Part shown: piece after piece, positions 1 to 62,935 of the stretch
Position numbering within the stretch: position 1 is the first letter of the stretch
How the letters are laid out: the number at the start of each line of letters is the position of its first letter
Sequence record: NZ_CP071296.1
DNA from: a plasmid
Direction: 5' to 3' (one strand)
DNA: 64,000 bases
Made by a program: the position numbers and the translations under genes
Notes under the pieces: generated by a model
Told to the model about the DNA's origin: nothing
What the model saw: the letters and a program-made list of their open reading frames with translations, nothing else
Databases searched by the model: none

Positions 1-1383
1 CAAGCCTTGTAAGCTCATTTTCGTACCACTCAGTAATTCCCTTCAATCGGTACTTTTCAGGCGGTACGTGTGCAATATTCAACTGTCCACCAAGCCTGTC
101 CTCTTTTTCAAAAAGAGTTACTTTATGTCCTCGTTCTGAAGCCGTTACCGCAGCTTGCATACCTCCAGGTCCTCCACCAATTACAACAATATTTTTGGAT
201 GCTTGAGGCTTTGTGTCGTATACCTTCAAAATCTCCACACCCGCTGTCGGATTCAACACACATCTAACTGGACGCCCGCCCAAAGTAATGTTATTGATAC
301 AGCCCTCCATACAGGAGACGCACTTGAGGATTTCTTTTTCCCTACCCTCCTCAGCTTTCTGCGGCCAATACGGATCGCAAATCAACTGACGACCAAGAGA
401 AACATAATCCGCTTTGCCTTCAGCCAGAACATTTTCACAAAATTGCGGTTCTCTGAGATTTCCAACACACATGACAGGAACAGAAACTGCTTTTTTTATC
501 CTTGCAGCATATTCCACTTTAGTACCTTGTGGACGTATGTATGCCTCGCACTGCCTAGAACTATCGGCTGAAGTACCATAGCTTACATCAAGGAAGTCAG
601 CGCCTGCTTTTTCAAATGTTTGTGCAATGGTAATGCACTCATCATCTGTCAAACCGCGACTGGTATTTTCTTTTCCTGGAATGCGCACACCGACGATGAA
701 GTCCTTACCAACTGCCTGACGAATGCCTGAAATAATTTCAACTCCAAAACGCATTCTGTTCTCAAGACTTTGGCATCCGTATTCATCGTCACGGAAGTTT
801 GCATCACGTGAAAGGAACTGATTGATTAGATATCCATGAGCCGCATGTACCTCGACGCCATCACAACCTGCGTCCTTGCAATTAATCGCAGCCTGTATAA
901 ACTTTTGTACAATTTTCTTAATTTCATCAGTTGTTAATGTGTGAAGCGTATCCTTATCCTCTGCATGGTAATAGCGAATCGGGAGATGTTCTATAGGAGC
1001 GTCCGCGCTGGGACAAACAGGACTCAACCCTCCAGTAGTAGACAACTGTGCCTGTGCCCCGGCATGATGAATCTGCGGAATCAAAAGTGCTCCATACGAT
1101 TGAACTCCCCTAGCAAGAGTTGCCAGAGCGGCAATATGTTTTCTGTCCTCAATGGACTCTGGAACACCAGTAGGATTACCGACCGGAAAATCTACGATAA
1201 CGCCTCCTGTGATTATAATCCCCGCGCCACCTTTGGCACGTTCAAGATAATAGGTTATAATGTTTTCACTCATGGAGCCGTCAGGGTTGGCTAAGTTTGT
1301 GTCCATAGGCGACATTACGATGCGATTTTTAACACGTTTTCCCCGAAGATAGTCTTCTGTAAATAGATGCGAGTATTTCGTCA
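1..1383 (-). CDS. NADH:flavin oxidoreductase (Old Yellow Enzyme family) with C-terminal FAD/NAD(P)-binding domain; 3' end lies outside the window (partial)
   Basis: Minus-strand ATG at 1381-1383 preceded by an AAGGAGAG RBS. Translation begins MTKYSHLFTEDYLRGKRVKNRIVMSPMDTN, an OYE-type N-terminus. A GGGPGG dinucleotide-binding motif is encoded near the window start. The listed plus-strand ORFs 155..571 and 941..1294 are shadow ORFs. Confidence 0.65.
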
Positions 1384-1689
1384 TAATTTTATCTCTCCTT
1401 CCATACTTATGCGTTCAATTAACTTTGATAAAAATTTATCAATGCAAATAGTCTATCAGTATAAATAAAATTTGTATATCGTAATACTGCTAAATCTGTT
1501 GTTTTACTGCTAAAATTTATTTAGTTAATCATTGTTAATCATTAGGTTTCAATAATTTTTTAACAGTGTTCTGATGTACATATTAGGTAAGAAAGCATAA
1601 AAAAACCGATTTATTCAATGTCATTTAGCCTGGCAATCACATTTTCAACATGTTATCTGCATCTTTAAACTGATGGAAGTACTCCTTCA

Positions 1690-2397
1690 TCACCGTTTTG
1701 TTTCTTTAGAAGAGAGATTAGTTTCCGTTTCCTGCTGTTTCACTCTATTTCCTACTGTTTTTTCTTCGATATCCTCAGCCTGATGCTGACTTTTCTCTTT
1801 TACCTGTTCATACTCCCTTACTATCTCTGTATAAAGCTTTTCACGAAATTCCTTGGTAACTGGATAACAAACATCCTGATACATCGGTTTTCCTTGCTCA
1901 TCTATCTGCTTCGTTTTATAAGCCGGCATCGAAACAAAAATATTTTCCTTTCCCTGAAGAATGTTTACATTATTTACAATAAAACTTTCCTCAATATAGA
2001 TTCTGGCAAGTCCCTTGATGTTACTTCCATCTCTTTCATATGGAGATACCGTAACTGAAAATTCTGGCATCTCTACAACACTCTTCATCCCTTTACCACT
2101 GTCTTGTACCTGCTCTGGTGCAAGTGATCGTTCATATGCTTCAAGAATATTTGTATAAAGTTCTTCACGAAATTCTGCCGTGATTGGATTACAGACATCC
2201 TTATAGATGGTTGCACCACTCTCGTCTTTTTCACTAGATTTATATCTAGGCATGGATACAAAAAGTTGATCTTTATCTGCGTTCTCAAGGATTGCGATAT
2301 TGGTAATCTTAAAACTGTCTCCAAATACCACAGTTGCAAATCCTTTGATATTGCTTCCTTCTTTTCTATTAATGCTGTTCACCTTAATTGAATATTT
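1690..2397 (-). CDS. Tandem SpoVG-domain protein (two SpoVG-like repeats); the 5' end abuts the IS and the listed ORF start lies inside the IS inverted repeat
   Basis: Two internally homologous ~95-aa domains (KGFATVVFGDSFKITNIAILEN... and KGLARIYIEESFIVNNVNILQG...) resemble SpoVG. The first 11 codons (MIVDLKLCNRT) are encoded by the IS6 terminal IR; the same peptide starts the ORF at 41388..41633. Confidence 0.55.
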   Translation of the reverse strand, partial: KYSIKVNSINRKEGSNIKGFATVVFGDSFKITNIAILENADKDQLFVSMPRYKSSEKDESGATIYKDVCNPITAEFREELYTNILEAYERSLAPEQVQDSGKGMKSVVEMPEFSVTVSPYERDGSNIKGLARIYIEESFIVNNVNILQGKENIFVSMPAYKTKQIDEQGKPMYQDVCYPVTKEFREKLYTEIVREYEQVKEKSQHQAEDIEEKTVGNRVKQQETETNLSSKETKR

Positions 2398-3206
2398 GGT
2401 TCTGTTGCAAAGTTTTAAATCTACTATCAAATAAGGTAGAATAATAGAAAAAGATAGCAGGAGGAATGAAGATGAATCATTTTAAAGGAAAGCAATTTCA
2501 GCAGGATGTGATTATTGTAGCCGTGGGCTACTATCTTCGTTATAACCTTAGCTATCGTGAAGTTCAAGAAATCTTATATGATCGTGGCATTAACGTTTCT
2601 CATACGACGATTTATCGTTGGGTGCAAGAATATGGCAAACTACTCTATCAAATTTGGAAAAAGAAAAATAAAAAATCCTTTTATTCCTGGAAAATGGATG
2701 AAACGTACATCAAAATTAAAGGAAAATGGCATTATTTGTATCGAGCCATCGATGCAGATGGTTTAACCTTGGATATTTGGTTACGTAAAAAACGGGACAC
2801 ACAAGCAGCCTATGCTTTTCTTAAGCGGTTAGTGAAGCAGTTTGATGAACCGAAGGTTGTAGTCACAGATAAAGCCCCCTCTATTACAAGTGCCTTTAAG
2901 AAACTAAAAGAATACGGCTTTTATCAAGGGACAGAACATCGTACCATTAAATACCTGAATAATTTGATTGAACAAGACCATCGTCCAGTAAAGAGACGCA
3001 ATAAATTCTATCGAAGTTTACGCACTGCCTCACCCACGATTAAAGGTATGGAAGCCATCCGAGGATTATATAAGAAAACCCGAAAAGAAGGCACTCTCTT
3101 CGGGTTTTCGGTCTGTACTGAAATCAAGGTATTATTGGGAATCCCAGCTTAAATCATAGATACCGTAAGGGATTTTATTCTTTATTTAAAACTTTGCAAC
3201 AGAACC
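2398..3206 (+). mobile_element. IS6-family insertion sequence, IS1216-type (809 bp), copy 1
   Basis: Terminal inverted repeats GGTTCTGTTGCAAAGTTT at 2398 and its complement ending at 3206. Single transposase ORF. No 8-bp target-site duplication. Confidence 0.9.
2466..3152 (+). CDS. IS6-family (IS1216-type) transposase, 228 aa
   Basis: MKMNHFKGKQFQQDVIIVAVGYYLRYNLSYREVQEILYDRGINVSHTTIYRW...; a DDE transposase of the IS6 family. Confidence 0.9.
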   Translation: MKMNHFKGKQFQQDVIIVAVGYYLRYNLSYREVQEILYDRGINVSHTTIYRWVQEYGKLLYQIWKKKNKKSFYSWKMDETYIKIKGKWHYLYRAIDADGLTLDIWLRKKRDTQAAYAFLKRLVKQFDEPKVVVTDKAPSITSAFKKLKEYGFYQGTEHRTIKYLNNLIEQDHRPVKRRNKFYRSLRTASPTIKGMEAIRGLYKKTRKEGTLFGFSVCTEIKVLLGIPA

Positions 3207-3337
3207 GGATAATCAATAGTATTATATAAAAGTATCAATCACATACGAGTGATACTTTGGGAAAAAAATAAAATAGTCCAATTTACTTGACCGTGTACTA
3301 TGGTACACGGTTTATAATATTCATGGGGTGAAATAAG

Positions 3338-3754
3338 ATGATTTATCGCATTAGTGAGTTTGCAGATAAATGTGGAGTTAATAAAGAAACGATCAGATAT
3401 TACGAGCGAAAAAATTTATTACAAGAACCTCACCGAACGGAAGCTGGTTATCGGATATATTCATATGATGACGTTAAGCGTGTTGGGTTTATTAAACGAA
3501 TACAGGAACTTGGTTTTTCTTTAAGCGAGATTTATAAATTACTTGGTGTTGTAGATAAAGATGAAGTTCGTTGTCAAGATATGTTCGAATTTATTTCTAA
3601 AAAACAAAAGGAAGCGCAAAAACAAATAGAGGATTTAAAACGAATTGAAATGATATACATCTTTCCGAAAAAGTTTGCTTTTTCTCAAAGCATGGCTATA
3701 AATAATTGTTGGTCCATTCTTAAGGTCGATAACACTTTTCAATACCGACCCTAA
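3338..3754 (+). CDS. MerR-family transcriptional regulator (138 aa)
   Basis: N-terminal MerR HTH (MIYRISEFADKCGVNKETIRYYERKNLL..AGYRIYSYDDVKRVGFIKRIQELGFSLSEI) followed by a coiled-coil region. Confidence 0.7.
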   Translation: MIYRISEFADKCGVNKETIRYYERKNLLQEPHRTEAGYRIYSYDDVKRVGFIKRIQELGFSLSEIYKLLGVVDKDEVRCQDMFEFISKKQKEAQKQIEDLKRIEMIYIFPKKFAFSQSMAINNCWSILKVDNTFQYRP

Positions 3755-3820
3755 TACTGACCCTAATACTGACCTTGATACCGACCCTAATACTGACCCT
3801 AATACCGACCTCAATACTGA
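3744..3820. repeat. 12-bp tandem repeat array (about 6.5 units of ACYGACCYTAAT)
   Basis: Direct reading: accgaccctaat actgaccctaat actgaccttgat accgaccctaat actgaccctaat accgacctcaat actga. Confidence 0.8.
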
Positions 3821-3822
3821 AC

Positions 3823-3848
3823 AAAAAAAGCCACCTGATTTCAGTGGC
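3823..3848 (-). terminator. Rho-independent terminator for the minus-strand ATPase/repeat-protein operon
   Basis: Stem GCCACTGAAATCAGGTGGC followed by TTTTTTT on the minus strand (plus strand reads aaaaaaagccacctgatttcagtggc). Confidence 0.55.
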
Positions 3849-4033
3849 CCAATTAATATATTTAAAATCTTTATAAAGGAGGATTCCTCAGATGTATCTG
3901 GTTGAGCGAATATCAAGCTTTCTGATTGGCTCGTGGTATATAACGAGTTGGTCATTGAGTTTCAACCTAGTTTGATACATTTGATTGGAGCATAATTTAA
4001 TTTCATATTCTCAAAAGATGAGAAAAATTTATA

Positions 4034-4516
4034 TTATCCCAAAAATTTCGTAATACTATCTGCAACATTTTGAATTTGTTCAGGAATGTTTTCGGTTATA
4101 CCTCCTGCAACATTTTGAATCTGTTCGGGAATGTTTTCGGTTATACCTCCTGCAACATTTTGAATCTGTTCGGGAATGTTTTCGGTTATACCTCCTGCAA
4201 CATTTTGAATTTGTTCAGGAATATTTTCGGTTATACCTCCTGCAACATTTTGAATTTGTTCAGGAATGTTTTCGGTTATACCTCCTGCAACATTTTGAAT
4301 CTGTTCGGGAATGTTTTCGGTTATACCTCCTGCAACATTTTGAATCTGTTCGGGAATGTTTTCGGTTATACCTCCTGCAACATTTTGAATCTGTTCGGGA
4401 ATGTTTTCGGTTATACCTCCTGCAACATTTTGAATTTGTTCAGGAATATTTTCGGTTATATTCCCCAAAATTTCTTGTGCTTGTTCAGTTAAGTTTTGAA
4501 ATATATTTTTAAACAT
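4034..4516 (-). CDS. Highly repetitive small protein (160 aa) made of 9 tandem 15-aa units GGITENIPEQIQNVA; function unknown
   Basis: ORF with a GGAGAG RBS. The ATG lies 8 nt after the stop codon of the upstream ATPase. Near-perfect 45-bp DNA repeats. No signal peptide or TM segment. Confidence 0.7.
   Translation of the reverse strand: MFKNIFQNLTEQAQEILGNITENIPEQIQNVAGGITENIPEQIQNVAGGITENIPEQIQNVAGGITENIPEQIQNVAGGITENIPEQIQNVAGGITENIPEQIQNVAGGITENIPEQIQNVAGGITENIPEQIQNVAGGITENIPEQIQNVADSITKFLG
4061..4465. repeat. 9 tandem 45-bp coding repeats
   Basis: Unit tgcaacattttgaatYtgttcRggaatRttttcggttatacctcc repeated head-to-tail with only third-position variation. Confidence 0.9.
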
Positions 4517-6421
4517 TTATAGCTCTCCTTCTATATCTTTTTTATTTGGCAATAATAATCTCAATGAATTTAGCAGAACAACCAGCGTACTTCCCTCATG
4601 CAATGTTATGCTTAGTACCACCGAGGTATTTTTCCATAGACTAATATACACTAAAAATAGAACAACTAATAAAGCAAATATTATATTTTGAGTTACAATA
4701 TTTTTTAATCTTTTAGAAGTTTTATGTGCACTCACAAAATTACCAAGGTCATTATTCATTAATACTACATCTGCAGTTTCTATAGCTACATCCGTGCCAT
4801 CTCCCATCGCAATACCTACATCTGCTACAGCAAGTGCTGGTGCATCATTCACACCATCTCCGATCATCGCGGTTGGACCATATTTTTCTTTATTTTCATT
4901 TATTATTTTTGCCTTTTCATCAGGCATTACATTTGCCTGCACATCTCTTACGCCTAACTGTTTCCCAATTGCCTTTCCCGTTAATACTGCATCACCAGTT
5001 ATCATAATAGTCTTTATTTGATTCTTATTTAAATATTGAATTGCCGAAATTGCAGTCTTTTGAGGAGTATCTTGAATTGCTATTAAGCCTTCGACTTTAT
5101 CGTTAACAGCAATAAATACTACCGTTTTTCCTTCATTTTCAAAGTTTTCCTGTTTTTCAATCCATTCTTGACTTACCATTTTAAATGCACTTGGTTTAGC
5201 AATTCGATAGCTTTCTCCTTGATAGGTTGCGCTCAATCCTGTCCCAAGTTCATTTTCAACTTTTATATCGTAGTCAACTTTTTGAGTTTCAAATTTATTA
5301 ACTATAGCATTTGCTAATGGGTGATTACTTTGCTTTTCCATTGCTACTAATGTATTTCTAAAGGATTCACCATCAAGTTCGGGATTAAAATAGAAATCTA
5401 CTACTTTTGGTTTTCCTTCTGTCAATGTTCCTGTTTTATCAAAAGCGACAGCTTTTAAATTAATTAAATTTGAAAGAAAATTACCACCTTTAAATAGTAT
5501 TCCTTGTTTTGCTAAAGATGATATTCCAGCTAATGTTGCAGGAATTGCAGCAACAGCTAATGCACATGGTGAAGCAGAGACTAGAAAGACTAAACTTCTT
5601 GAAATTGTTTCCGTTAATGTCCAGCCTAAAAACATTGGAGAAAATATAATTAAAGCTAAAAATATTACTAATACTCCGTTGACATAGTGTGGTTCAAAAC
5701 GTTTTATGAAATCGGCAGTTGGTGAAAGGTTATTTTGTGACTCTTCAACCATAGTTAATATTTTAGAAAATACTGTATCCTTGCTATCCTTGGATACTCT
5801 CATAGTGAATGTACCTGTACCATTAATGGTTGAACCAAAAACAATATCACCAACATTTTTTTCTCGAGGAATACTTTCACCATTTATGGTTGACTCATCA
5901 ATGCTTGTTGAACCATTAAGTATGATACCATCAGTTGGAACTTGCGCTCCATTCAAAACTTGAAGTCTATCACCTATTTTTAATTTATCAATCGAAACTA
6001 CTTCTATATTTCCCTCATTATTAATTAAACGAGCTTCCTTAGGATTTAGTTCTATTAGTTTAGTAATTTCCCGTTTACTTTTTCCCTCAACATATTCTTC
6101 AAGAAAGTGTGCCCCTGCGAATATAAAGATTAGTAGAGCAGCTTCAACGGCTTCTCCTAAGAAAATTGCACCTATTGCGGCAAGTGTCATTAAAATATGC
6201 GTATTAGGAGTAAATCTTTTCTTTTTGACTGTCTCTTTTATGGTATCATCTATCCCTTCAAGCATTACATGATATCCCGATAAAATAGTTGCTATTATGC
6301 TAATTAAAACTCTGACTGTACTTGATATTGGGAGTAATAATCCGATGATAAAAATTATTATTCCGATAAAATATAAGCGTAATGCTCTCTTTTCTTTTAA
6401 AGCTGTAATTAAGCTTTTCAT
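4517..6421 (-). CDS. P1B-4-type heavy-metal P-type ATPase (PfeT/CzcP-like; SPC motif; no N-terminal metal-binding domain), 634 aa
   Basis: P-type ATPase motifs DKTGTLT, TGD and GDGVNDAPAL. TM6 motif is SPC (VSASPCALAVA), not CPC. No CxxC HMA domain. Confidence 0.8.
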   Translation of the reverse strand: MKSLITALKEKRALRLYFIGIIIFIIGLLLPISSTVRVLISIIATILSGYHVMLEGIDDTIKETVKKKRFTPNTHILMTLAAIGAIFLGEAVEAALLIFIFAGAHFLEEYVEGKSKREITKLIELNPKEARLINNEGNIEVVSIDKLKIGDRLQVLNGAQVPTDGIILNGSTSIDESTINGESIPREKNVGDIVFGSTINGTGTFTMRVSKDSKDTVFSKILTMVEESQNNLSPTADFIKRFEPHYVNGVLVIFLALIIFSPMFLGWTLTETISRSLVFLVSASPCALAVAAIPATLAGISSLAKQGILFKGGNFLSNLINLKAVAFDKTGTLTEGKPKVVDFYFNPELDGESFRNTLVAMEKQSNHPLANAIVNKFETQKVDYDIKVENELGTGLSATYQGESYRIAKPSAFKMVSQEWIEKQENFENEGKTVVFIAVNDKVEGLIAIQDTPQKTAISAIQYLNKNQIKTIMITGDAVLTGKAIGKQLGVRDVQANVMPDEKAKIINENKEKYGPTAMIGDGVNDAPALAVADVGIAMGDGTDVAIETADVVLMNNDLGNFVSAHKTSKRLKNIVTQNIIFALLVVLFLVYISLWKNTSVVLSITLHEGSTLVVLLNSLRLLLPNKKDIEGEL

Positions 6422-6471: not shown

Positions 6472-6502
6472 ATTATAAACTATACCTTTACGGTAAGGTC
6501 AA
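6472..6502 (-). promoter_or_regulatory. MerR-type promoter for the ATPase operon: -35 TTGACC, 19-bp spacer carrying the dyad ACCTTTACGGTAAGGT, -10 TATAAT
   Basis: Minus strand reads cTTGACCttaccgtaaaggtatagttTATAATatc. A 19-bp spacer carrying a dyad is the hallmark of MerR-activated promoters. A merR-family gene starts divergently at 6512. Confidence 0.5.
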
Positions 6503-6511
6503 GGAGAAAGA

Positions 6512-7291
6512 ATGGAAAATAAAAATTATTTGACTATAGGAAAACTTAGCAGCTATTCTGGTATACATATCAAGGCTTTAAGATATTATGAGTCTATCGG
6601 CATTTTACATCCAGCATTAATTGATGCTAATAATGGTTACCGCTATTACTCTCATGCACATATTCCATATGTGAAAATTATAAAATTATGTGCTGATTAT
6701 GGAATTCCTCTAGGGACTTTTAACGACTTTATTAAGTCCGAAACTGAGATCAATTTGATCGAAATCATTAGAAAAGCTAGTAACATATTAGAATTAAAAG
6801 AAAAGCAATTAAAAGAGGATAAGCAATTTTTAGAATATATACAAAATGAAATAAGCTTATCTCAAAAACTAGACTCATCAATTAATGTTGATTTAGAGCA
6901 AACTCATGAGGATTTTATCTTGATACCTTTCGATGATGTATTTTTTTCAAATAAGTACTATGATACAATTAATAAAACTATCTCTATGTTGAAGGATTTA
7001 GAAATAGAATTTTTTAACCGAATTGGGTGTTATTATTCACTCCAGTATGGTAACTACGATAAATTTCTTGCCTTAAAAGTTCGGGGCCACTCATCAAAGT
7101 TAAAAAACATAAAAATTTTGCATATTGATCATGTCTGTGTTCAAGCACAACATATTGAACCTGATAAGATAACGGATGAATTAATTAGACTTAAAAAACT
7201 TAAGCAAAATTCTATATTAATTCTGGAAACTTACGAAAATCCGTACAACTTTTCAACGCCACATCTGGAATTAAGGATATTATTAAATTAA
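6512..7291 (+). CDS. MerR-family transcriptional regulator with C-terminal effector-binding domain (259 aa)
   Basis: MerR HTH (LTIGKLSSYSGIHIKALRYYESIGILHP...GYRYYS) at the N-terminus plus a ~150-aa C-terminal domain. Divergent from the ATPase and overlaps the MerR-type promoter. Confidence 0.7.
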   Translation: MENKNYLTIGKLSSYSGIHIKALRYYESIGILHPALIDANNGYRYYSHAHIPYVKIIKLCADYGIPLGTFNDFIKSETEINLIEIIRKASNILELKEKQLKEDKQFLEYIQNEISLSQKLDSSINVDLEQTHEDFILIPFDDVFFSNKYYDTINKTISMLKDLEIEFFNRIGCYYSLQYGNYDKFLALKVRGHSSKLKNIKILHIDHVCVQAQHIEPDKITDELIRLKKLKQNSILILETYENPYNFSTPHLELRILLN

Positions 7292-7343: not shown

Positions 7344-7711
7344 TTAATTTGGGAGTAGGAATACTACATTTTCTGGGCTAATATTTGTTCTAACATTTCC
7401 CCAAGGAAATGTCCCACCATATCCAGCTTCTTGAACGTTAAATGTTCCATCTGGGTTCACCCCAGTTACTACTGCCACATGACCATATGGTGAGGTTCGA
7501 GCTGTAGTAGACGTTCCATATCCTGTAAAATGGTCAGTAAATCCTGAAGCAATAACTCCTGGAGCCAAATTTGTTCGACGCAAGACTCCTTGACTCACAC
7601 CATTTGTTCCCCAATAACCTCCATTACCATTTACTATGTTTGCTATATATATTCCTTTAGCGGCAAAGTACTGCCAAACAAAATCGGTACAGCCTCCGCC
7701 TGCATAAGGAT
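7344..7711 (-). pseudogene. CHAP-domain peptidoglycan hydrolase, C-terminal fragment (5' end removed by IS insertion)
   Basis: CHAP catalytic Cys (GGGCTDFVWQYF) and His (YGHVAVVTG). The ORF reads upstream into the IS IR at 7712. Confidence 0.6.
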
Positions 7712-8520
7712 GGTTCTGTTGCAAAGTTCCCCATAACACCTGATTTATTGTAAAATGTAATAAAAAAGAATGCGAGGACAATAGATGAATCATTTTAAGG
7801 GCAAACAATTCCAAAAAGACGTGATTATTATCTCTGTTGGGTATTATCTTCGCTATAATTTGAGTTATCGTGATGTTCAAGAGATGTTATATGATCGTGG
7901 CATTAACGTTTCTCACACAACAATTTACCGTTGGGTTCAAGAATATGGTAAGCTGATCTATCAAATCTGGAAAAAGAAAAATAGACAGTCCTTTTATTCG
8001 TGGAAAATGGACGAAACTTATATTAAAATTAAAGGGAAGTGGCATTATCTCTATCGTGCAATCGACTCAGAAGGCATGACACTGGATATTTGGCTAAGAC
8101 GAAAGAGAAATACTCAGTCTGCTTATGCTTTCTTTAAACGACTATACAAGCAGTTTGGGGAACCGAAAGTTATCGTGACAGATAAAGCACCATCAATTGC
8201 TAGTGCTTTTAGGAAGTTACAAAAGCAGGGGCTATACAGCGAAACTGAGCACCGGACAGTCAAGTATCTCAATAACTTAATTGAGCAAGATCATAGACCT
8301 GTTAAACGTCGAAATAAACTTTATCAAAGTCTTCGTACTGCATCAACTACGATTAAGGGCATAGAAGCATTGAGAGGCATATACAAAAAGAACCGAAGAA
8401 ATGGAACGCTCTTCGGCTTTTCGGCATCTACTGAAATTAAAGTTTTGATGGGTATACCAGCATAGTCAAAGTATCAGAATGGGACTTTTGTACTCAGTAT
8501 TGAAACTTTGCAACAGAACC
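7712..8520 (+). mobile_element. IS6-family insertion sequence (ISS1/IS1297-like variant, 809 bp), copy 2
   Basis: IRs GGTTCTGTTGCAAAGTT at 7712 and the complement ending at 8520. The transposase differs from the IS1216 type (FQKDVIIISVGYYLRYNLSYRDVQEMLY). No TSD. Confidence 0.85.
7785..8465 (+). CDS. IS6-family transposase (226 aa)
   Basis: IS6 DDE transposase homolog. Confidence 0.9.
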   Translation: MNHFKGKQFQKDVIIISVGYYLRYNLSYRDVQEMLYDRGINVSHTTIYRWVQEYGKLIYQIWKKKNRQSFYSWKMDETYIKIKGKWHYLYRAIDSEGMTLDIWLRRKRNTQSAYAFFKRLYKQFGEPKVIVTDKAPSIASAFRKLQKQGLYSETEHRTVKYLNNLIEQDHRPVKRRNKLYQSLRTASTTIKGIEALRGIYKKNRRNGTLFGFSASTEIKVLMGIPA

Positions 8521-15122: not shown

Positions 15123-15842
15123 TCCGTTGAAAATTCTGATAAGTGAACAATAAAACAAGTCGGATCTAAAATTTTTGGGCTTTAAAATTTAAGACCGGAC
15201 TTTTTTATTTGAGTTTTTTTAAACTCTATTTTTTACTTTGTAAAAAATAATGCTCCTGTCGTTGAGCAAACCAACGAAAAAGCACTAAAGAAATTGAAAA
15301 ATGAATTTTTCACTCCCTTTAATGCTTGAATCATCCTATAAGCTCATATTTTGTCTTTTAAGCCCTTTAAAAAGCATTCTGATATAATTTTCTGTAATAT
15401 CTGACTGAGACAATATTTTAAGAAATTATCGCAAAATTACTTTCAATGTTCTTGAGCGGACTCTATAATGTTGTCCAAAATAATTTTTGACTCTAATAAA
15501 TTGACTTAACGTCATATGTACAGTAGATAATATATCTGTAGGAAATGCTTTTGTAAAATGTGTTACTTGTCAAGAAGATGGAATCCTCTTAGAATCATTG
15601 AATGTAGAATTAAATCAATATGGATAAAGGAAATTTCCAGACAAGAAGATTAGTTGGGAAGACAACCCAAGAATAATTGGAAAAGTAGTTGCTGCATTTA
15701 CTCCGATTGAAATTAATAATATATTTTAAAAAAAGAAAATTGGGACTCCTTAGAGTCCCTTTTAATTATTTTATATTATATATTTTGTCTTTTGTTCTTT
15801 TGCGAAAAAAAAATTCTAGTGTTTGCAAGGGATAACAGGATT

Positions 15843-15920
15843 ATAGTCCTACAAAAAACTGTGCATAGTCCTACAAAAAACTGTGTATAGTCCTACAAAA
15901 AACTGTGTATAGTACTACAA
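15843..15920 (+). repeat. Replication-origin iterons: 3.5 x 22-bp direct repeats ATAGTCCTACAAAAAACTGTGY
   Basis: Head-to-tail 22-bp repeats about 60 bp upstream of the rep gene; an AT-rich region lies upstream of them. Confidence 0.8.
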
Positions 15921-62716: not shown

Positions 62717-62935
62717 GAGTGATAGCACTTTTTGCTATCACTTTTGCCTTGTGAATGCACTTTCTGCTATCACATGGCAATTATGAGTGCACTTTCTGCT
62801 ATCACTTTTTATATAGACTTTTCCTAACTTTGATTACCTTATAATTGTGATAGCACTTTTTACTATCACTTTTGCTTTGTGAGTGCACTTTCTGCTATCA
62901 CTGCCTCGTTTTGATGGCACTTTCTGCTATCACTT
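62717..62935. repeat. Array of six copies of a 17-bp motif GCACTTT(C/T)TGCTATCAC in two triplets, each beginning with a palindromic version GTGATAGCACTTTTTRCTATCAC
   Basis: Copies at 62717, 62751, 62785, 62846, 62879 and 62913, at ~34-bp spacing. They sit in the intergenic region upstream of the helicase gene. Confidence 0.8.

Follow-up and report, generated by a model that had tools for sequence, protein, structure and literature searches.

A small-protein gene with an in-frame variable-number repeat at the end of a predicted P1B-4-type ATPase operon on plasmids of lactic acid bacteria

Introduction

The 64,000 nucleotides (nt) of plasmid record NZ_CP071296.1 that were analyzed here, referred to as the window, contain the gene of a heavy-metal P-type ATPase and, directly behind it on the same strand, an open reading frame (ORF) with nine tandem repeats of 15 amino acids (aa). 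A prediction made from the letters of the window (the original prediction) had singled out this pair of genes. The locus raises the questions of whether the repeat ORF is a real gene, how its repeats arose, and whether its product has anything to do with the pump encoded before it. Three conclusions are firm: the ORF is a small-protein gene of the orphan kind whose repeat varies in number without leaving the frame, it closes a P1B-4 ATPase operon with a MerR-type promoter, and it lies on a mobile module. The best explanation of the locus as a whole, to which we give a probability of roughly one half, is a peptide gene that was amplified in frame behind the pump gene and whose product acts with the pump.

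Results

Anatomy of the repeat ORF and its junction with the ATPase gene

The features of the gene pair are as follows (bp, base pairs).
4034..4516, minus strand: repeat ORF of 160 aa, taken from the ORF list and the sequence; an allele expanded from an orphan small protein of 40-41 aa
4058..4462 (codon register), minus strand: in-frame array of nine 45-bp units, of unit types B-A-A-A-G-D-A-A-C
4514..4519, minus strand: TAAATG junction, in which the ATPase stop codon TAA (4519-4517) abuts the ATG (4516-4514) of the repeat ORF with a gap of 0 nt
4523..4528, minus strand: GGAGAG ribosome-binding site of the repeat ORF, 6 nt 5' of the ATG and within the final ATPase codons
4517..6421, minus strand: P1B-4-type heavy-metal P-type ATPase of 634 aa, assigned by Pfam, TIGR01525, motifs, and nearest structure

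The 160-aa ORF opens with an 18-aa head, MFKNIFQNLTEQAQEILG, and closes with a 7-aa tail, SITKFLG. Between them lie nine 15-aa units, in order NITENIPEQIQNVAG, seven copies of GITENIPEQIQNVAG, and GITENIPEQIQNVAD. Tandem Repeats Finder scored the array at 732, with a period of 45 bp at 4060-4460, 8.9 copies, and 96% matches, a periodicity that is far beyond chance. The ORF list, Tandem Repeats Finder, and the sequence confirmed the nine-repeat, 160-aa ORF behind an ATPase with an SPC motif that the original prediction had described. The statement that the repeats vary only at a few third positions is true of the interior units inside the window, which differ at three third-codon positions only (AAT/AAC, CCT/CCC, and CAA/CAG).

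The original prediction had also placed 8 nt between the ATPase stop codon and the repeat ORF. This was incorrect, as the two abut in TAAATG. It gave no strand for the two genes, both of which are on the minus strand. The junction has the layout of translational coupling: the stop and start codons are adjacent, the ribosome-binding site lies inside the upstream gene, and there is no terminator between the genes. In sister alleles, a 14-nt spacer between the ATPase stop codon and the small ORF takes the place of the abutment. This is because a 1-nt indel in an A-run within 4520-4545, seen in comparison with six other loci (L002-L004, L007, L014, and L015), alters the last ATPase codons and relocates the stop. 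The ATPase therefore ends either in PNKKDIEGEL* (634 aa, stop codon abutting the ATG) or in PNKKI* (629 aa, 14-nt spacer). Since two C-termini and two spacings occur among the alleles, strict abutment and the exact geometry of coupling are not conserved.

Repeat number among relatives and the single-unit form

The numbers of units found in related alleles are given below.
4 units: L. hircilactis
5 units: pUCCL631A
6 units: six plasmids
7 units: pLG50 and one L. plantarum plasmid
8 units: pIBB-JZK and LG606
9 units: the window
13 units: pLG42 and FDAARGOS_893
1-4 units: metagenome assemblies, in which repeat collapse is possible

Finished plasmids and isolate genomes contained 4-13 units, and alleles of two or three units came from metagenome assemblies only. 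The full range, 1-13 units, lies behind ATPases that are 96-99% identical, which supports the original prediction of a recent expansion with a strain-variable number of repeats. The array is therefore an in-frame variable-number tandem repeat, in which near-identical 45-bp coding units differ in number among close relatives. All alleles with an array assembled from end to end are in frame, except for one with a 1-nt insertion (L046); one more allele is cut by the end of an IS6 element (L045). The original prediction had offered a phase-variable modulator of the pump as one possible role. On/off phase variation is excluded because the 45-bp unit is 15 codons long and a change in copy number keeps the frame.

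When units were typed by their synonymous differences, one series of alleles read BFDAC, BFDAAC, BFDFDAC, BAAAGDAAC (the window), and BFAAGFAGGDAAC, and a second lineage read HEI, HEDEEI, and HEDEDEEI. The terminal units are constant across alleles, and interior units are duplicated or lost. Fixed ends with a changing interior are as expected of slipped-strand mispairing or unequal recombination, and units have probably been gained and lost in one of these ways.

In a word-indexed homology search, the full repeat protein returned nothing and a single-unit query succeeded. The non-repetitive query found single-unit proteins of 40-41 aa, P0133 (MFKNIFQNLTGQAQDILGQITENIPEQIQNISDNFTKYLGL) and P0151 (MFKNIFQNLTGQAQEILGNLTENIPEQIQNITDRITKFWG). 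In both cases, a 629-aa ATPase with 96-98% identity to that of the window is encoded upstream, and the peptide gene begins 14 nt behind it (L014 and L015-L018). The single-unit alleles are taken to be real because the contigs of L014 and L018 were assembled at k=141 and, by reasoning, could not be produced by the collapse of a 45-bp array. As shown by these alleles, the predicted ancestral product is a 40-41-aa acidic peptide of the form MFKNIFQNLTgQAQEILGnITENIPEQIQNvaDsITKFLG. Since single-unit alleles exist, the repeat protein is a recent in-frame internal expansion of this small peptide.

Coding constraint and disrupted alleles

The distinct unit variants differ by 18 changes, 9 of which were synonymous in the annotated frame compared to 22% expected (p=0.009). 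The bias was stronger in the core codons 2-12 (ITENIPEQIQN), where six of eight changes were synonymous against the same expectation (p=0.002). The annotated frame was the best of the six. Just one other frame is open across the array, and in it the changes comprised 5 synonymous, 11 non-synonymous, and 2 stops. Every allele, including the 96% lineage, preserves the head and tail, the start codon, and a ribosome-binding site of the GGAG type. We argue that the ORF is a translated gene because of this synonymous bias and the preserved start codon and ribosome-binding site. The small ORF appears to be under weak purifying selection and to be translated from its own GGAG site, probably coupled to termination on the ATPase gene.

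Two alleles are disrupted.
3100-3150 of L045 (L. formosensis isolate): IS6-type inverted-repeat end GGTTCTGTTGCAAAGTTTTAAAT inside unit 2
3100-3130 of L046 (L. lactis draft genome): 1-nt A insertion in unit 2 of a six-unit array, which could be a sequencing error

In addition, the contig of P0160 breaks inside the array.

Distribution and linkage of the module

A module of regulator, ATPase, and small ORF was found on 13 plasmids of the collection at 97-99% DNA identity. The plasmid hosts are Lactococcus lactis, L. garvieae, L. piscium, Lactococcus sp., Leuconostoc lactis, and Lactiplantibacillus plantarum. IS6/IS1216 insertion sequences flank the module on nearly all of these plasmids, and it has probably spread between plasmids through them. 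A tblastn search with the head, units, and tail recovered the ORF in the same 13 plasmid records and in no other plasmid of the collection. Two further scans were conducted with an alignment of the single-unit forms. With one genome per species, matches came from L. hircilactis and L. formosensis only. Metagenomes yielded 13 loci. In each, the ORF directly followed an ATPase of at least 98.9% identity, and 11 of the loci also had the regulator.

The ATPase gene lies directly upstream in every locus examined whose ORF start falls within the contig, whether from plasmids, metagenomes, isolate genomes, or protein lookup. The original prediction had suggested checking whether homologs always follow SPC-type ATPase genes, and the answer was positive at all examined loci. 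This perfect linkage counts for little because the loci are all copies of one recently spread module, together with relatives of 57-68% identity that lack the ORF. The linkage is real, but it comes from that one module and not from conservation in independent lineages.

The ORF was sought behind ATPases of 57-68% identity from Streptococcus, Carnobacterium, Isobaculum, and uncultured sources, and none was found. Several of these relatives retain a MerR-type neighbor, and in at least three of their loci a hairpin and T-run could be read in the sequence after the ATPase stop codon. The contig of the closest outgroup ATPase, of 79% identity (L023), stops 27 nt past the ATPase stop codon and was too short to be scored for the ORF. 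Behind an ATPase of 72% identity, a different small ORF was present.
4758-5009 of L024 (logan:SRR25399794_9606): His-rich basic ORF of 83 aa with DFTNDxHERTKHG repeats and its own GGAGG site

This ORF plausibly encodes a metal-binding protein. Kinship to the MFKNIF peptide through a shared 'NIFxxL' motif was considered and rejected (shuffle p 0.4-0.56).

The fullest neighborhood was found in L014, where a two-component system (response regulator and histidine kinase) and a PcsB/CHAP protein are encoded next to the MerR regulator (1-4008), followed by the genes of the ATPase and the peptide. The window, at 7344-7880, and most plasmids have a truncated CHAP ORF only (178 aa in the window, cut by an IS6 element at about 7785).

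The upstream ATPase

The ATPase matched the Pfam domains E1-E2_ATPase (1.2e-41) and Hydrolase (HAD; 7.2e-32), and scored 558 bits against TIGR01525, for which the cut-off is 346. Its catalytic core contains DKTGT at residue 328, GDGVNDAP at 521, and NGES at 180, which resembles the TGES of the A-domain. In M4, the sequence SASPCAL places SPC at residues 284-286 (5564-5572 in the window). In M6, the last transmembrane helix, HEGST at residues 608-612 (4586-4600) corresponds to HEGxT. No CxxC was found in a search of the whole ATPase, and there is no classical N-terminal heavy-metal-binding domain; the first hydrophobic helix begins at about residue 18. The nearest solved structure was sCoaT (7qbz/7qc0, E=7e-94), with ZntA (4umv) close behind at 5e-93. 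Since the margin of sCoaT over ZntA is small, the assignment was made mainly on motifs. SPC in M4 and HEGxT in M6 are signatures of P1B-4 pumps (PMC8880997). We therefore file the protein as a predicted P1B-4-type ATPase, in agreement with the original prediction, which had named an SPC-motif P1B-4 ATPase; SPC and HEGST, the lack of CxxC, and sCoaT as nearest structure all bear this out.

The regulator, promoter, and transcript

The remaining parts of the operon region are listed below.
6512..7291, plus strand: divergent MerR-family regulator of 259 aa, matching Pfam MerR and MerR_1
6472..6502, minus strand: MerR-type promoter of the ATPase/small-ORF operon (TTGACC, 19-nt spacer, TATAAT), read in the 90-bp intergenic spacer
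3828..3850, minus strand: terminator-like hairpin and T-run, about 185 nt 3' of the repeat-ORF stop codon

The regulator is of the long type, and a phmmer search of the PDB placed it nearest to the drug sensor BmrR over residues 4-119 (1.6e-11). Its C-terminal half had no family match and contains the cluster HIDHVCVQAQH. A single-sequence AlphaFold2 model of the regulator gave a low-confidence hint (predicted local distance difference test, pLDDT, 35) of two beta-alpha-beta-beta modules, as in a GyrI-like domain. ATPases with as little as 60% identity still have the regulator beside them. Since the regulator is more like the drug-sensing BmrR class than the short metal sensors, its inducer may be a metal or an organic compound.

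Promoters of the MerR family typically have an over-long spacer of 19-20 nt, which contains a dyad. The promoter at 6502-6472 has an imperfect dyad, ACCTTAC-c-GTAaAGGT, at 6499-6484 within its 19-nt spacer. It is thus predicted to be a classical MerR-type promoter beside a divergent merR-family gene. A consensus promoter scan that allowed spacers of 16-18 nt only did not list it. That scan found no promoter enrichment in the scanned region, and the terminator scan found no minus-strand terminator-like site between the ATPase gene and the repeat ORF. The hairpin at 3850-3828 is the probable end of the transcript. Because of these three observations, it is likely that the ATPase gene and the repeat ORF are co-transcribed and that their translation is coupled.

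Properties of the product and family searches

The repeat protein has a charge of about -19 and an isoelectric point of 4.05. It contains only I, N, Q, E, G, T, A, P, V, F, L, K, D, S, and the initial M. At most, the Kyte-Doolittle mean of 19 residues reached 0.05 in the 160-aa form and about -0.1 in the single-unit forms, so neither has a transmembrane segment. No signal peptide or sorting motif was found in the repeat protein. The hydrophobic moment over the whole sequence peaked at 96 degrees, or 15 residues per four turns; the 160-aa form gave 0.48 and the single-unit peptides 0.48-0.53. The peak in the single-unit peptides is informative because it is not forced by repetition. In the ancestral peptide, the hydrophobic residues return with a period of 3.75 positions, which is the pattern of an amphipathic alpha-helix.

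In a single-sequence AlphaFold2 model of low confidence (pLDDT 64), the repeat protein forms two long helices of generic appearance. Each unit contains N-I-P-E and A-G-G, and these might cap short helices, in which case the protein would be a string of beads of amphipathic helices of about 8-13 residues. Each unit has a pair of Glu residues at an i, i+4 spacing (E-N-I-P-E).

Searches of Pfam, NCBIfam, PHROGs, and PADLOC with the repeat ORF gave sub-threshold or repeat-inflated matches only. One Pfam model, LNYV_PP_C, scored above its cut-off (51.9 bits over the whole protein). It was rejected since nine repeats were summed against an 18-residue stretch, no single domain passes, and the match is gone in the single-unit forms. 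Matches to UbiK, ApoLp-III, ZorA, and tape-measure proteins were all sub-threshold and were also rejected; the NCBIfam matches were far under their cut-offs, and the weak PHROGs and PADLOC matches fell on helical regions of tape-measure proteins and ZorA. A phmmer search of the 160-aa protein against 1.8 billion representatives returned 826 matches. Those inspected were either fragments of the same gene or long proteins with repeats or coiled coils, which are unrelated and similar only in a periodic manner; the latter were rejected as homologues. The original prediction had not recognized the repeat, and no domain-level family match rose above threshold here. The databases already hold the gene as a 'hypothetical protein'. 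In the literature, we found no paper on the gene as a family, on its repeat polymorphism, or on its origin from a 40-aa peptide, and the paper on pSMA198 has nothing on this locus. Looking for publications on the lco copper-resistance genes brought up unrelated ones only.

Discussion

Likeness to known systems

The gene resembles both the small partners of P-type ATPases and the in-frame repeat proteins of Gram-positive bacteria, and it is a member of no known family. Small partners of P-type ATPases such as KdpF, MgtS/MgtR, sarcolipin, phospholamban, FXYD, and yeast PMP1 are single-pass membrane peptides. Like partners of the KdpF and sarcolipin type, the ancestral form is a very short ORF associated with a P-type pump, with 40-41 aa encoded directly behind the pump gene. 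In contrast to KdpF, sarcolipin, and FXYD, the window peptide has no hydrophobic helix, is acidic and amphipathic, shares no sequence similarity with them, and contains a variable-number repeat. Alpha C/Rib family proteins and the Xr region of Spa are examples of Gram-positive proteins with in-frame variable-number repeats, which are secreted and wall-anchored. They share with the repeat ORF near-identical coding units of a multiple of 3 nt whose number varies among close strains. Unlike them, the repeat ORF has no export or anchoring signal and is the operon partner of a transporter.

Pumps of the P1B-4 type (PfeT, PmtA, CzcP, and sCoaT) have the broadest metal range among the heavy-metal ATPases. 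The window ATPase resembles sCoaT, PfeT, PmtA, CzcP, and CtpD in its SPC, HEGxT, DKTGT, and GDGxNDxP motifs and in having no N-terminal CxxC domain. It differs from the described P1B-4 members, for which no co-encoded small protein has been reported, in having one, and its regulator is a long BmrR-like MerR-family protein instead of PerR or Fur. The original prediction held that P1B-4 pumps normally have no dedicated partner, and this fits the literature, in which no chaperone is known for them (PMC8880997).

Proposed function and its alternatives

A pump-accessory role for the peptide is plausible. The original prediction had suggested a metal-binding or chaperone-like accessory, for which the repeat protein would have carboxylate and amide side chains only. 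We commit, at low certainty, to a product that would be a cytoplasmic, possibly membrane-peripheral, helical acidic protein acting with the pump. The i, i+4 Glu pairs would be placed on the polar side of the units, where they may hold hard divalent cations (Fe2+, Co2+, Zn2+, or Mn2+) near the pump entrance. Alternatively to cation capture, the helix may dock on the pump. Added units would raise valency or length and would not switch expression on or off. In its most specific form, the proposal would make the product the first dedicated protein partner of a P1B-4 pump: a newly arisen, non-membrane, amphipathic acidic peptide that sits at the cytoplasmic entrance for cation capture or docking, with its unit number tuned by the repeat. 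We consider this full version unlikely.

Several observations weigh against an action with the pump, and most of them are what would be expected if the ORF were young and nearly neutral. In that case, a short frame in the 3' transcript of the ATPase gene would have become translatable in one lineage and been expanded by slippage as a 45-bp minisatellite, and its product would be idle and simply be carried along with the pump module. The gene occurs in a single clade, whose ATPases share at least 96% identity, and the relatives of 57-68% identity end in a terminator without the ORF. The ratio of non-synonymous to synonymous polymorphism (pN/pS) was 0.4-0.76 for the small ORF compared to 0.09-0.12 for the ATPase, calculated from very few sites, suggesting that constraint is looser than in the pump. 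The unit number is free to vary from 1 to 13, two disrupted alleles (L045 and L046) exist, and there was no homologue among the 1.8 billion representatives. In the only experiment found, curing of pLG42, which has the 13-unit allele, changed no metal minimal inhibitory concentration (PMC4420470). Three further points count against the pump-linked explanation. The repeat protein has no Cys, His, or internal Met and thus no soft-metal site, the regulator is more like the drug-sensing BmrR class than the short metal sensors, and the 72%-identical ATPase has an unrelated His-rich ORF in the place of the peptide gene. A nearly neutral young ORF is therefore the main rival and a serious one. We nevertheless consider it the less likely of the two, as it does not account for the bias of the annotated frame toward synonymous changes (p=0.002 and 0.009) or for the preservation of the start codon, ribosome-binding site, head, and tail in every allele, the 96% lineage included. 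A coherent amphipathic periodicity across 40 aa is also unexpected of random AT-rich sequence, and the disrupted alleles are just two in about 30.

The other alternatives accept a working product and differ in what it does. Group 3 late embryogenesis abundant (LEA) proteins, apolipophorin-III, and the 11-mers of perilipin and synuclein are built from amphipathic repeats, and the stalks of trimeric autotransporters have 15/4 coiled-coil repeats. The window protein is like these in its tandem short units in alpha-helical phase, with a spacing of 4, 4, 3, 4 (15 residues per four turns). It could be a hydrophilin or LEA-like repeat protein that shields membranes or proteins under acid, cold, or desiccation stress in foods and is linked to the pump by co-transcription alone. 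Its hydrophilic, acidic nature without a transmembrane segment would suit such a role, as would its sub-threshold likeness to apolipophorin-III (26.9 bits, cut-off 36.3) and CsbD (E=0.16), and the carriers are dairy and food plasmids that collect adaptive genes. However, its period is 15 and not 11, it has Pro and Gly-Gly in each unit, it is much shorter, and no profile or family match was significant. The ORF was never away from this ATPase in the searches made, and single-unit forms of 40 aa are too short for a LEA-type shield. We regard this role as improbable. A metallochaperone like CopZ, passing metal to the pump via a dedicated site, is more improbable still. CopZ and Atx1, which serve P1B-1 copper ATPases, are likewise small soluble proteins in the operon of a P1B ATPase, with a proposed place near the cytoplasmic ion entrance, and the 72%-identical ATPase has its small His-rich ORF in the same position. 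On the other hand, CopZ has a beta-alpha-beta-beta-alpha-beta fold and a CxxC motif, whereas the repeat protein lacks Cys, His, and internal Met, is predicted to be all helical with no ferredoxin-like fold, and shows no similarity to the His-rich ORF (shuffle p ~0.5). The literature also knows no chaperone for P1B-4 pumps. Finally, this could be an on/off-switched gene or a surface antigen. The number of repeats does differ between strains, and a legacy name stands in the databases and in one report (PMC4420470), but a unit of 15 codons never shifts the frame, the product has no signal peptide, transmembrane segment, or sorting motif, and the name is based on low-complexity similarity only. 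This idea is hardly tenable.

If the full version of the proposal is true, the natural series of 1-13 units would record the birth and growth of a new gene. A co-translated peptide that modulates or feeds a P1B-4 pump would open a testable question. Whatever the function, the series of 1, 4, 5, 6, 7, 8, 9, and 13 units documents a lineage-restricted small gene that grows by internal duplication. It is carried by mobile plasmids of food and fish-pathogen lactococci, which makes it useful for the study of how new proteins originate. Repeat number may possibly also serve as a plasmid typing marker. With a narrow distribution and no phenotype, the expected importance is modest.

Other features of the window

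A mercury-type merR (ORF 3338-3754, plus strand) lies beyond the end of the operon. It matched the MerR model over residues 4-106 only and looks like a truncated remnant that points toward the ATPase operon in convergent orientation. Of the merR query region, the 5' 351 bp were 98-99% identical to a merR of an Enterococcus faecium plasmid. A 12-bp tandem repeat, AATACTGACCCT, with 6.7 copies at 3741-3820, overlaps the 3' end of this gene.

Two other repeats were noted at a distance from the operon. Direct repeats of 22 bp, TATAGTCCTACAAAAAACTGTG, occur in 3.6 copies with 94% matches at 15842-15920. They probably represent the iterons of a lactococcal theta-type replicon, such as the one described for pLG42. 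Degenerate tandem repeats of 32/64 bp (GCACTTTCTGCTATCACTT...) with 64-79% matches cover 62720-62935. A 246-aa ORF at 1690-2430 (minus strand) contains two SpoVG domains (Pfam 7e-46), a duplicated architecture that is unusual for SpoVG. Apart from this ORF, the window plasmid is a mosaic lactococcal plasmid.

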